Position numbers and translations under genes: made by a program
Notes under the pieces: model-generated
Database searches by the model: none
What the model saw: only the letters and a program-made list of their open reading frames with translations
What the model was told of the DNA's origin: nothing
Origin: Escherichia phage S127 BCL3
Sequence record: OQ626344
Strand: one strand, 5' to 3'
Length of the DNA: 64,000 nt
Part shown: piece after piece, positions 5,348-7,356 of the stretch
Layout: each line of letters starts with the position of its first letter
How positions within the stretch are numbered: the first letter of the stretch is position 1

Positions 5348-5902
5348 TTACTCCCCGCTGTCAATAGCAAGACTCATTGCAATACGGTATGCCTCTTCTA
5401 ATGGTAAGAGTCTCCCCCACACATCCCAACCGACATCAAACTGCCTGCCAAACAACTGCTGTGTGGTTCCGTGAGCATGACCGAACAGTTGGACTGATCC
5501 GTGAGGCTTTCTGTTCCACTTTGCAAACTGGTAATGGCTCATACAGATCAAATTCTTGTTGTGGCGAAGCTCGTAATAATCTACAACCTCATGACCGAAC
5601 TCTTTCATAATTCTGACAGTCGTCCTTGTGTCATGGTTACCACGAACAAGAATAATATGTCCGTTCAACATATTTAGAACATCTGGAAGCAATTTGTTGA
5701 TATTCTTATCATTAGTGCACGCAATATCCCCCAAGTGAAACACAGTGTCTGCAGGTGACACAACAGAGTTCCACTTAGTGATGATTCCCGCATTCATACT
5801 GTCAAGATTGTGACCATACTGAGATCTGTGTTTTTGACATGAGTCGAACTCCATGACCCGCTGGTGGAGAAAGTGTGTGTCGCTTGTTACAAAGTATTTC
5901 AT
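5348..5902 (-). CDS. calcineurin-like metallophosphoesterase (Ser/Thr or polynucleotide phosphatase)
   Basis: Motifs DTHF, GDIACTND, GNHD, GHAH; start MKYFVTSD at 5902 with GAGGAA RBS. Confidence 0.7.
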   Translation of the reverse strand: MKYFVTSDTHFLHQRVMEFDSCQKHRSQYGHNLDSMNAGIITKWNSVVSPADTVFHLGDIACTNDKNINKLLPDVLNMLNGHIILVRGNHDTRTTVRIMKEFGHEVVDYYELRHNKNLICMSHYQFAKWNRKPHGSVQLFGHAHGTTQQLFGRQFDVGWDVWGRLLPLEEAYRIAMSLAIDSGE

Positions 5903-5909
5903 ACATTCC

Positions 5910-6320
5910 TCATTTAAGTTTAATGCAGTTTTTAAGCTGGCGTTCCATACGATCCACAACCCTGTCTGGAACATCATGAATGCTTTTATTACCATGGCGG
6001 TTTTCAACCACGATCACGGTATAACTATATCCATGACTGATCGCCATGTCAATATATTCTTGCACATATTTTTCTTTTGTAAACGTATTACTTACCACGA
6101 TACGGTCGTAGCCCATACGCATCATATCTTCTACGTTATCTTTGCACCATTTTGCTGCAAGTGTTACTTTACTTGCATCCCAATTGTAATTGCCGTCATC
6201 GTCGTACCAGAACATATCGTTCTCAAAATGTGGATACAGACCTTCTAAAGATAGCGCATTTGCTAGTGTTGATTTGCCAGACCCTGGTAGACCACGCACG
6301 ATATATAGCATTTTAGACAT
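5910..6320 (-). CDS. P-loop kinase resembling polynucleotide kinase (PNK) kinase domain
   Basis: Start MSKMLYIVRGLPGSGKST at 6320 with GGAGGG RBS; Walker A like T4 Pnk GCPGSGKST. Confidence 0.6.
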   Translation of the reverse strand: MSKMLYIVRGLPGSGKSTLANALSLEGLYPHFENDMFWYDDDGNYNWDASKVTLAAKWCKDNVEDMMRMGYDRIVVSNTFTKEKYVQEYIDMAISHGYSYTVIVVENRHGNKSIHDVPDRVVDRMERQLKNCIKLK

Positions 6321-6420
6321 AGTAACCCTCCGTTTTAATTTTAATGATAGTATACCTAACTGTTTTGTTAATTTCAAGTGTTGACACCAGGCTATTTGTG
6401 TGGCAAAATAAAGGGACAAA

Positions 6421-7356
6421 ATGACAAATGAGGAATGTATGATGAAGTATTTTAATGCAGACGACCTGGTTGACAAAGGTCTTGTAACCAGCAGATATTA
6501 CTCGGATCTTGGGTTAAAGATCTATAAATATGCCAGAAAAGTATTCTACAACAATTTATGGCATTTGTCTCCTCGTTTGCTGGAGTGCCGAGGCATTGTT
6601 GTCGGTAATGAAGGAAATGTTGTGGCATGGCCCTTCACAAAAGTGTTTAACTTGGGAGAAAATTCCACCAACCTGCCTGACAATAAACTTGTGACGGCGG
6701 TAGAGAAAAAGAACGGATTCCTTGGTGTGGTTTCATCTCATAAAGGTGAACTATTGTTCTCAACAACCGGGTCTCTTGATTCTCCATATTGTAACCTCGC
6801 AAAGGAAACAATCCAGGAGCAATGTGGTAATTTAGATCTTATCAAGAGGGTTATGGGCCATGAAAACATGACATTCATGTTTGAAATTTGTCACCCTTCA
6901 GATCCGCATATTGTTCAGGAAGATCATGGCGCATATTTGATAGGTTGCAGATATAATGATTCTGGAATAATGCTACCAGAAGCAGCTTTAGATGGGATTG
7001 CCAAATACCTTGGTGCAAAACGTCCTCACACTGTGCGTGAAATTCCGTTCAGCTATGCAAAAGAATTAGCTGCAGAAACAAGAGGTGAAGGGTATATGAT
7101 TCGTAAGCCTTACTACCCTTATGATCTGCAGCTGAAGATCAAGTCTCCATACTATTTGGCACGGAAGGCCGTAATGAGGGGTAAAGCTTGGAAGATTTGG
7201 GATGATGATATCTTTAAACGTGTTGACGAAGAGTTTTACGGCATGGTAAACTTCATCCGTAGAAACTACACAGAAGATGTGTGGAACTGCCTCCTGGAGC
7301 AGGAACGCCGTGAGGTACTTGACTGCTATTTCCACAACGAGGACTATATGCAATGA
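6421..7356 (+). CDS. putative RNA ligase (Rnl2-like nucleotidyltransferase)
   Basis: Motif I EKKNGF (K-x-N-G), motif IV EGYMIRK, motif V KIKSP; ATG at 6439 has the stronger RBS. Confidence 0.5.
   Translation: MTNEECMMKYFNADDLVDKGLVTSRYYSDLGLKIYKYARKVFYNNLWHLSPRLLECRGIVVGNEGNVVAWPFTKVFNLGENSTNLPDNKLVTAVEKKNGFLGVVSSHKGELLFSTTGSLDSPYCNLAKETIQEQCGNLDLIKRVMGHENMTFMFEICHPSDPHIVQEDHGAYLIGCRYNDSGIMLPEAALDGIAKYLGAKRPHTVREIPFSYAKELAAETRGEGYMIRKPYYPYDLQLKIKSPYYLARKAVMRGKAWKIWDDDIFKRVDEEFYGMVNFIRRNYTEDVWNCLLEQERREVLDCYFHNEDYMQ

Follow-up and report, generated by a model that had tools for sequence, protein, structure and literature searches.

A split phosphatase, kinase and Rnl1-type ligase set in an rV5-like phage as a predicted heal-and-seal RNA repair module

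Many bacterial defences halt phages through tRNA cutting. PrrC is the classic example, and the tRNA repair carried out by T4 Pnkp (PseT) and Rnl1 (gp63) counters this anticodon nuclease. To our knowledge, the T4 pair is the only characterised countermeasure. In fungi and plants, Trl1 unites ligase, kinase and cyclic phosphodiesterase domains, the last being of the 2H type and leaving a 2'-phosphate that is later taken off by Tpt1. The likely primary description of RNA repair systems of the kind considered here is that of Burroughs and Aravind in 2016. A 2026 preprint on the OLD tRNase counts RloC, Cas13, PARIS, retron-Septu and OLD among the tRNA-cutting defences; it treats phage tRNA repair in general terms only and contains nothing on rV5-like phages. 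In bacterial Pnkp, represented by the Pnkp-Hen1 system of Clostridium thermocellum and the Pnkp1-Rnl-Hen1 system of Capnocytophaga, a P-loop kinase is combined with a 2',3'-phosphatase of the metallophosphoesterase superfamily and an ATP-dependent ligase (PMC3675462, PMC2190708). Iyer, Burroughs, Anantharaman and Aravind (2022, Viruses 14:1977, PMC9503650) predicted a role in RNA repair for a sirtuin-centred neighbourhood, 'phage V5 / Proteus phage Mydo', composed of a sirtuin, a T4-like tRNA ligase, cREC, a nucleotide kinase, MazG and a calcineurin-like phosphoesterase, and put forward the hypothesis that the Sir2 protein is an analogue of KptA/Tpt1. The paper on phage Adele reached the same repair reading independently, as did Iyer et al.

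The window, the whole 64-kb stretch of DNA analysed here, is that of a Vequintavirus with 99.2% identity to phage vB_EcoM-ECP32. The phage is rV5-like and infects E. coli. Its genes at 5348-9201 and the V5 neighbourhood are one locus in one phage group, and all six components are found here. The module is already known, with annotations in over 100 rV5-like genomes and an interpretation in print; it is real and ordinary, and its RNA-repair activity is predicted. No biochemical or genetic test of it was found in the literature searched. Homology, predicted folds, conserved catalytic residues and gene linkage support the view that the phosphatase, the kinase and the Rnl1-type ligase probably form a split heal-and-seal RNA repair module. 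A sequence-only reading of this DNA had proposed such a module, confined to 5348-7356 and provided with an Rnl2-like ligase. The analogy of the trio with T4 Pnkp plus Rnl1 is supported by all four lines of evidence, whereas the Rnl2 label and the limits are not: the co-oriented cREC, Sir2 and MazG-like genes extend the module to 9201. The ORFs and all the motifs that had been quoted are present, and each of the three proteins matches its families strongly in Pfam and PHROG.

In the proposed pathway, the metallophosphoesterase would open and strip a cyclic or 3' phosphate to leave a 3'-OH, the small P-loop kinase would then add a phosphate to the 5'-OH, and the Rnl1-type ligase would adenylylate itself on K96, transfer AMP to the 5'-phosphate and seal the break. 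These three predicted steps, 3'-end healing, 5'-phosphorylation and sealing, are those of T4 Pnkp/Rnl1, with which the locus also shares the ligase family, with all the essential nucleotidyltransferase residues kept, and the kinase fold, with its P-loop and catalytic Asp. It differs from T4 in having a stand-alone kinase of 136 aa without the fused HAD phosphatase, an unrelated binuclear metallophosphoesterase in place of the latter, and a shorter ligase C-terminal domain (about 70 aa, compared with some 120 aa in T4). The combination of enzymes is that of bacterial Pnkp, but it is encoded here by three separate genes instead of one polypeptide, with a phosphatase of another family and a ligase of the Rnl1 type. 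A scan of the eight proteins encoded between 4950 and 11113 found no Hen1 or other methyltransferase domain. With Trl1 the locus shares the heal-and-seal logic built around a P-loop kinase; it has a metallophosphoesterase where Trl1 has its phosphodiesterase, and a step like that of Tpt1 is no more than a hypothesis, for Sir2 (PMC9503650). We infer the substrates of the module, the order of its reactions and its role against host defence; the likely purpose would be to undo host attacks on the translation apparatus, together with the phage's own tRNA genes.

The ligase is encoded on the plus strand by an ORF of 311 aa (6421-7356) that carries EKKNGF, EGYMIRK and KIKSP. The probable translation start at 6439 would yield 305 aa; a ribosome-binding site, GAGGAA, lies at 6430-6435, and the same start is annotated in phage Bas54. 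The protein is an ATP-dependent RNA ligase of the Rnl1/Trl1 type, predicted from its sequence to join 3'-OH and 5'-phosphate RNA ends. It matches Pfam PF09511 (RNA_lig_T4_1; 1.1e-14, 55.3 bits, cut-off 28.3) and phrog_562 (4.2e-66), and scores 39.3 bits with the NCBIfam equivalog TIGR02308, under the cut-off of 242.25 bits; having passed the Pfam threshold and missed that of the equivalog, it is a member of the Rnl1 family and not a T4 RnlA equivalog. Searched as a single sequence against PDB sequences, the ligase returned noise only, and the match to T4 Rnl1 (2c5u; 7.4e-14) needed a profile built from 34 homologues. The T4 elements LECRGI, K-F-FN, TKEDG, FE, EGY and KIKS are all aligned in this profile. 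The sequence-only reading had made its assignment depend on the catalytic lysine, which is present and invariant: K96, in motif I (K96-K-N98-G99), is aligned with T4 Rnl1 K99, the K of TKEDG. The residues invariant in the 34 homologues are R57, K74, F76, K96-x-N98-G99, E155, E223-G224 and K239-x-K241, and the counterparts of T4 R54, K75, F77, E159, E227, G228, K240 and K242 are all invariant in the family. The list of essential T4 Rnl1 residues reportedly comes from mutagenesis work of the Shuman laboratory.

The AlphaFold2 model of the ligase (pLDDT 89.1) points to the same family. Foldseek placed T4 Rnl1 (8.6e-13) at the top of the solved folds together with fungal tRNA ligase Trl1, whose LIG domain matches best over the whole structure (TMq 0.67-0.71), whereas T4 Rnl2 (2hvr) reached 6e-6 with a TMq of 0.41. 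No Rnl2-family Pfam match was obtained for the ligase, and 'Rnl2-like' was rejected in favour of Rnl1/Trl1-type on the Pfam, T4 Rnl1 profile and Foldseek results. The profile alignment ends at T4 residue 249, and residues 243-311 of the ligase form an all-helical C-terminus in the model. The C-terminal tRNA-specificity domain of T4 Rnl1 spans residues about 255-374; given the difference between its roughly 120 aa and the roughly 70 aa found here, a tRNA preference of the ligase is unproven.

Many GenBank records name this protein 'RNA ligase and tail fiber attachment catalyst', and PHROG 562 is filed under the category 'tail'. The ligase could then be, like T4 gp63, chiefly a virion-assembly factor, with the adjacent kinase and phosphatase unrelated to it. 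This is extremely improbable, given that the label has been carried over from T4 by homology and that it leaves the tight linkage of the kinase and phosphatase without explanation. Transposon data from Bas54, a 96%-identical phage, also argue against it: the Bas54 ligase gene, with insertions at 56 of 60 TA sites, is classed as Non-essential, whereas the N-terminal domain of T4 rnlA is intolerant of insertions. An essential role of the ligase in tail-fibre attachment was rejected on the grounds that these insertions are tolerated. All three orthologous genes are dispensable in Bas54 on E. coli K-12, as expected of an accessory function. In the part of that data set covering two host comparisons, mutants of the module genes showed no depletion (log2FC +0.1 to +0.4, adjusted p 0.75-1), a point against the proposed repair role, and for the screens on clinical isolates the main text of the paper names genes other than those of the module.

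The kinase gene (5910-6320, minus strand) encodes a stand-alone P-loop protein of 136 aa with the motif RGLPGSGKST, a single domain in which no fused HAD-type 3'-phosphatase was found; its homologues are likewise stand-alone proteins, of 127-160 aa. It matches Pfam AAA_33 above the gathering score (2.7e-10), phrog_2071 (2.2e-58) and phrog_505, 'polynucleotide kinase' (3e-10). Among solved sequences, its profile matches those of Pnkp1, T4 Pnk, PSTK and CthPnk, and, weakly, nicotinamide riboside kinase (E 0.027-0.043). Foldseek searches with the AlphaFold2 model (pLDDT 91.9) gave CthPnk (4jt2; 3.6e-6, TMq 0.74) as the best match, and ranks 1-7 were occupied by CthPnk, T4 Pnk (1ly1) and PSTK, with TMq of 0.72-0.77; gluconate, shikimate and UMP-CMP kinases scored lower (0.48-0.58), and nicotinamide riboside kinase was not among the 50 best matches. 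The kinase is predicted to be a 5'-OH polynucleotide kinase, as the earlier reading had proposed from the resemblance of its P-loop to that of T4 Pnk. The competing assignment as a nucleoside kinase, which that reading had held to be damaging, was rejected, since the closest solved proteins, by sequence as by fold, are kinases of polynucleotides or tRNA. The family keeps G10-LPGSGKST and D35 without variation, and these align with the T4 P-loop and with T4 D35, the D in INRDD. A counterpart of T4 Pnk R38, the Arg that binds the acceptor phosphate and lies three residues past the catalytic Asp, is missing from the family, which has the consensus D-M-F-F/W at this place and invariant residues of its own (R9, Y45, C59, R108, H109 and H115). 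The kinase could therefore act on an acceptor different from that of T4 Pnk.

The phosphatase gene follows on the minus strand (5348-5902) and encodes 184 aa counted from MKYF. The protein is a binuclear metallophosphoesterase of the aq_1665 family, a family that is uncharacterised, and the calcineurin-like assignment made from the letters of the DNA is borne out: Metallophos_2 (28.8 bits) and Metallophos (27.1 bits) in Pfam both exceed their gathering cut-offs, phrog_547 is matched at 3.7e-51, and the full five-motif set for binuclear metal binding (DxH, GD, GNH(D/E), H, GHxH) is present. All 38 sequences share these motifs unchanged: D8-x-H10, G58-D59, G88-N89-H90, H123 and G141-H142-x-H144. 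The enzyme is predicted to heal RNA ends with a 2',3'-cyclic phosphate or a 3'-phosphate. In profile searches of PDB sequences its closest solved relative is Aquifex aq_1665 (1xm7; 6e-27), and other matches at E <= 0.1 are GpdQ, YfcE, MJ0936, Rv0805 and the nuclease MPE. CthPnkp phosphatase and lambda phosphatase gave no match to the profile at this threshold. Membership of the lambda-phosphatase/CthPnkp clade was rejected, sequence affinity being undetected at E <= 0.1, and in this respect the locus departs from bacterial Pnkp, although CthPnk and Pnkp1 are among the best matches of its kinase.

Weak matches of the phosphatase to PdeM/MPE, a ligase-associated DNA-damage nuclease (E 2.9e-4 and 0.006), raise the question of whether the trio repairs DNA ends with 3'-phosphate/5'-OH nicks, in replication or after attack by host nucleases. 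T4 Pnkp can repair DNA ends in vitro. A separate ATP-dependent DNA ligase, correctly recognised earlier by its KLDGLR motif, is encoded about 2.5 kb downstream (9830-11113, plus strand). We consider DNA repair very unlikely: the PdeM score is 20 bits against a cut-off of 150, a dedicated DNA ligase is already there, and the ligase of the trio is of the Rnl1/Trl1 type, whose members work on RNA 3'-OH ends.

Homologues of the ligase occur in 762 phage records. Of 83 phylogenetically non-independent loci that carry a ligase homologue of 35-88% identity, 74 have a kinase homologue and 65 a phosphatase homologue within 10 kb, mostly adjacent to the ligase, while the ATP-dependent DNA ligase was present in 29, MazG-like genes in 14, and cREC and Sir2 in 11 each. 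When the ligases are clustered at 70% identity, 36 of the 45 clusters hold all three genes, in five or more gene orders, and the trio was confirmed in the annotated phages alia, JG004 and Cody. From the viewpoint of the ligase, the conserved core consists of the kinase and the phosphatase, and Sir2 and cREC are lineage-specific. The published description of the V5 neighbourhood differs, being sirtuin-centred with an 'occasional' phosphoesterase.

The neighbours of the ligase are co-oriented with it on the plus strand (6421-9201). The first encodes a cREC (cyclic-phosphate processing receiver) domain protein of 116 aa (7353-7703; PF20274, 4.5e-14), in which W-DD-RDP, H-DNDLGE and H-x-SNPSA are invariant among 12 homologues. 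It is translationally coupled to the ligase, its start overlapping the ligase stop in ATGA (7353-7356). It is followed by a Sir2-family protein of 253 aa (7712-8473; PF02146 1.1e-26, phrog_2162 8.7e-109) with invariant GAGxSxESG, TTNVDDLLERAG and the His of HG; the CxxC motif that supplies the usual zinc-binding cysteines is absent from it. The third is a MazG-like nucleotide pyrophosphohydrolase of 237 aa (8488-9201; phrog_671, 5.4e-22), for which no Pfam match was found and which closes the plus-strand unit. In the rV5 lineage, these three proteins may provide a further, NAD+-dependent way of dealing with 2'-phosphate or cyclic-phosphate ends; alternatively, they may have a separate counter-defence role centred on NAD/ADP-ribose.

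The latter possibility can be extended to the whole locus, as a counter-signalling or NAD/ADP-ribose set in which the phosphoesterase degrades immune signals that are cyclic (oligo)nucleotides or derived from ADP-ribose, the substrate of the kinase is a nucleotide or nucleoside, NAD+/ADPr derivatives are handled by Sir2, cREC and MazG, and the ligase is a mere neighbour. Among the solved relatives of the phosphatase are a cyclic-nucleotide phosphodiesterase, Rv0805, and a glycerophosphodiesterase, GpdQ, the kinase has its weak profile match to nicotinamide riboside kinase, genes for NAD+ reconstitution, with PRPP-synthase-like and NAMPT-like annotations, adjoin the trio in JG004 and Cody, and cREC and the Sir2 clade are predicted to process ADPr derivatives (Iyer et al. 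2022, PMC9503650). It is the ligase, however, that the kinase and phosphatase follow from locus to locus, while Sir2 and cREC are mostly missing, and polynucleotide kinases come first by kinase fold. We regard counter-signalling as the main function of the locus as unlikely.

Returning to RNA repair, the module would represent a second, widespread solution to tRNA cutting with different healing enzymes, its activity being predicted. A broader proposal, which we hold as a doubtful possibility, is that the trio constitutes an RNA repair pathway widespread in phages, sufficient by itself and different in its biochemistry from T4 Pnkp/Rnl1, and that in Vequintavirinae it is joined by an NAD+-consuming branch, formed by a zinc-less sirtuin and cREC, which removes 2'-phosphate or cyclic-phosphate ends. 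If true, this would give the aq_1665 family its first function and would provide an analogue of Tpt1/KptA on a sirtuin fold. The remaining value of the locus is experimental and lies in the nucleases that are countered, in RNA healing by an aq_1665-type enzyme and in the NAD+ branch of Sir2 and cREC.

Seven tRNA genes were called by ARAGORN at 1600-2411 on the minus strand, six of them above the Rfam gathering score, 2.9 kb away from the module. They are context, possibly as substrates or back-up tRNAs, and stand outside the machinery of the module. In 27 of 42 related loci, tRNA genes are found no more than 10 kb from the ligase homologue, and one tRNA-like gene in the window is atypical, with 97 nt and an extra arm of 26 nt. 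These features, and the rank of the tRNA-splicing ligase Trl1, second in structural match only to T4 Rnl1, would suit routine RNA processing, in which the phage matures or splices its own unusual tRNAs or mends RNA cut by phage nucleases. Yet no splicing endonuclease or intron was identified, the atypical gene is, in the Rfam alignment, an uninterrupted tRNA whose variable region is enlarged and not an intron-containing one, and Bas54 can do without the three genes on K-12. Such housekeeping is, in our view, quite unlikely to be the function of the trio.

The two transcription units diverge from an intergenic region (6321-6420) with promoter-like sites for both, each identified as a consensus match only: TTGACA-17-CAAAAT with TG upstream on the plus strand (6381-6409), and TTGAAA-17-TATACT on the minus strand (6377-6349). 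At the other end of the plus-strand unit, 7 nt past the MazG stop codon, a GC-rich terminator-like hairpin, AGCCGGGGCGATCCCGGCT, was called on both strands (9208-9226), with 8 pairs, 6 of them G-C, and a T-rich tail. The GC skew flips sign at about 6400, where the coding strand switches too.

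The ligase, kinase and phosphoesterase genes at 5348-7356 are predicted, from protein families and fold models, to form a split heal-and-seal RNA repair module. The sequence-only reading had proposed such a module and was right in substance, although it assigned the ligase to the wrong subfamily and gave an incomplete extent, leaving out the cyclic-phosphate processing receiver domain (cREC), Sir2 and MazG-like genes up to 9201. The three ORFs that it described are all present: the phosphoesterase (5348-5902, minus strand, 184 aa), the P-loop kinase 7 nt upstream of it on the same strand (5910-6320, 136 aa), and the divergent RNA ligase (6421-7356, plus strand, 311 aa). 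Every motif that it quoted (GLPGSGKST, EKKNGF, EGYMIRK, KIKSP and KLDGLR) was found. The proteins match Pfam Metallophos_2, AAA_33 and RNA_lig_T4_1, respectively, above the gathering score, and PHROG families with E-values of 3.7e-51, 2.2e-58 and 4.2e-66; as sequence matches, these are far beyond chance.

The ligase is, on sequence and model grounds, of the Rnl1 type, and not Rnl2-like as first labelled. It falls in RNA_lig_T4_1 with E = 1.1e-14, and a profile built from 34 homologues, which share 43-49% identity with the query, matches T4 Rnl1 (2c5u) with E = 7.4e-14, aligning LECRG, PxxKxFN, the motif I lysine, FE, EGY and KIKS. In Foldseek, the AlphaFold2 model (pLDDT 89.1) matches T4 Rnl1 with E = 8.6e-13 and the ligase domains of fungal Trl1 with TM scores up to 0.71, whereas T4 Rnl2 ranks only 26th (E = 6e-6, TM score 0.41), and an Rnl2-type ligase was therefore rejected. 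R57, K74, F76, K96/N98/G99, E155, E223/G224 and K239/K241 are invariant among the 34 homologues. Loss of the catalytic lysine, which would have spoken against a ligase, is not the case, since K96 is invariant and aligned to the motif I lysine. The protein differs from T4 Rnl1 in its helical C-terminal domain, of about 70 aa (residues 243-311) instead of about 120 aa, and its score of 39 bits against T4 RnlA is far below the equivalog threshold of 242 bits. The true start is probably 6439, which is preceded by GAGGAA; the ligase of phage Bas54 is annotated as a 305-aa product.

The kinase is a member of a very large family of free-standing kinases, each about 130 aa long, in which the P-loop (G10/G13/G15/K16/T18), D35, N78/T79 and R108 are invariant, together with R9, Y45, C59, H109 and H115, which are peculiar to the family. 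Among proteins of solved structure, its profile has the best full-length matches to Pnkp1, T4 Pnk, PSTK and CthPnk, and its model (pLDDT 91.9) is closest in Foldseek to CthPnk, T4 Pnk and PSTK (TM scores 0.72-0.77). A nucleoside kinase, the alternative raised for this gene, is disfavoured, given that polynucleotide and tRNA kinases lead both searches and small-molecule kinases rank behind them in Foldseek. The P-loop and D35 align to those of T4 Pnk, but T4 R38 has no counterpart. By profile and fold the protein thus looks like a polynucleotide kinase, with an inferred acceptor substrate. The phosphoesterase, in which 5/5 metal-binding motifs are invariant, is by sequence a complete metallophosphoesterase. 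The nearest protein of solved structure is aq_1665 of Aquifex (E = 6e-27), itself uncharacterised; neither the CthPnkp RNA-healing phosphatase nor lambda phosphatase was detected in the profile search of solved structures. Its role in 3'-end healing is predicted from gene context.

Linkage was examined with the window's proteins in 80 IMG/VR loci that encode relatives of the ligase, and in three GenBank phages with annotation. At most 10 kb from the ligase, 74/83 loci have a kinase homologue and 65/83 a phosphatase homologue, both mostly adjoining the ligase; as the loci are phylogenetically non-independent, these counts are descriptive. When the ligases are clustered at 70% identity, 36 of the 45 clusters hold the full trio, whose genes come in five or more orders (including MPE-RNL-KIN, KIN-RNL-MPE, RNL-KIN-MPE and RNL-MPE-KIN, for phosphoesterase, ligase and kinase). 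This linkage, which outlasts gene rearrangement, argues for a functional trio. MazG (14/83), cREC (11/83) and Sir2 (11/83) look like lineage-specific additions. Of 42 loci scanned for tRNA genes, 27 have them no more than 10 kb from the ligase. In Pseudomonas phage JG004 (5325-8160) and Vibrio phage Cody (6738-8900), the trio directly adjoins genes with PRPP synthase and NAMPT annotations, whose homologues form NAD+ reconstitution pathway 1 in the paper on phage Adele; two distinct counter-defence functions may thus be clustered there. Some uncultivated viral contigs with the ligase module encode tmRNA (L049, L050, L059 and L067) or suppressor-type tRNAs (anticodon CTA in L059, L064, L067 and L083; TTA in L060), a hint of reassigned stop codons or of ribosome rescue close to the repair genes.

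Among the 45 clusters, only the rV5 lineage has the divergent arrangement, and the trio genes are co-directional in other lineages. GC skew flips sign at about 6400, and all long ORFs are on the minus strand to the left of the divergence region (about 6320-6420) and on the plus strand to its right; the kinase/ligase gap is therefore a major transcription-direction boundary of the genome. An identical 17-nt AAATGAGGAATGTATGA, comprising the GAGGAA ribosome-binding site and ATG, occurs at 5899-5915 (minus) and 6425-6441 (plus), so that the phosphoesterase and the ligase (probable start 6439), on opposite strands, have one identical translation-initiation region. Because a promoter-like site (6381-6409) and a GC-rich terminator-like hairpin (9208-9226) enclose them, the ligase, cREC (7353-7703, its start overlapping the ligase stop in ATGA), Sir2 (7712-8473) and MazG-like (8488-9201) genes plausibly form a four-gene plus-strand unit. 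Sir2 and its 11 phage homologues retain the NAD-binding GAGxSxESG and the catalytic HG histidine; none has the CxxC zinc-ribbon cysteines, which by sequence places them in a separate zinc-less sirtuin clade.

The module is already in the literature and its novelty is low. GenBank carries the labels 'RNA ligase', '3'-phosphatase, 5'-polynucleotide kinase', 'phosphoesterase', 'Sir2' and 'cyclic-phosphate processing receiver domain-containing protein'. Iyer et al. proposed a NAD+-utilising RNA repair system with a sirtuin in a KptA-like role, and the same group defined cREC in a jumbo-phage paper. A 2025 paper on Pakpunavirus Adele interpreted the homologous kinase and ligase as tRNA repair enzymes, and noted that the kinase has no phosphatase domain. 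In the literature searched, neither a biochemical nor a genetic test of the module was found. The remaining interest lies in the biochemistry of the aq_1665-type phosphatase and of the proposed Sir2/cREC branch.

Gene essentiality has been mapped in Bas54 (MZ501093; 96.4% identical over the module region) in the HIDEN-SEQ preprint. The ligase (56/60 TA sites hit), kinase (33/36), phosphoesterase (26/27), Sir2 (48/51) and MazG-like (35/40) genes are classed as Non-essential and cREC (16/21) as Intermediate. None of the six is depleted in the two host comparisons examined, and the main text, which describes Bas54 screens in clinical isolates, names none of them. These data fit an accessory function and speak against tail-fibre attachment as an essential role; a counter-defence role is hypothetical.

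The separate ATP-dependent DNA ligase of the sequence-only reading (9830-11113, plus strand, containing KLDGLR) was borne out by PF01068, an OB domain and phrog_114 (1.5e-82). Its Bas54 orthologue is also Non-essential (69/73 TA sites hit), which is unexpected for the only DNA ligase of a phage. In phage HMD-6 (compared over 12368-13084), an HNH endonuclease gene lies between DNA ligase and lysozyme and is absent from the window (compared over 11114-11237), which looks like a homing-endonuclease presence/absence polymorphism.

The window belongs to an rV5-like Vequintavirus, 4900-8500 being 99.2% identical to Escherichia phage vB_EcoM-ECP32 by megablast. This region matches 119 phage records, 117 of them covering 80% of the query or more, and all but one of the 119 reach 90% identity or higher. 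Eighteen are titled 'Campylobacter phage', 16 of them giving Campylobacter jejuni as host; since the matched region is from an E. coli Vequintavirus, the host assignment of these eighteen looks doubtful. Among the seven tRNA genes at 1600-2411, an atypical 97-nt tRNA-like gene (1846-1942, minus strand) is called by ARAGORN with a 4-base anticodon and matches the Rfam tRNA model (35.5 bits), with a 26-nt extra arm and the anticodon loop UUUUUAA, giving anticodon UUU (Lys). As a non-canonical tRNA-Lys(UUU), it might serve as a nuclease-resistant stand-in for a tRNA cut by some host defences. In this region, the HMD-6 record annotates no more than three tRNAs.
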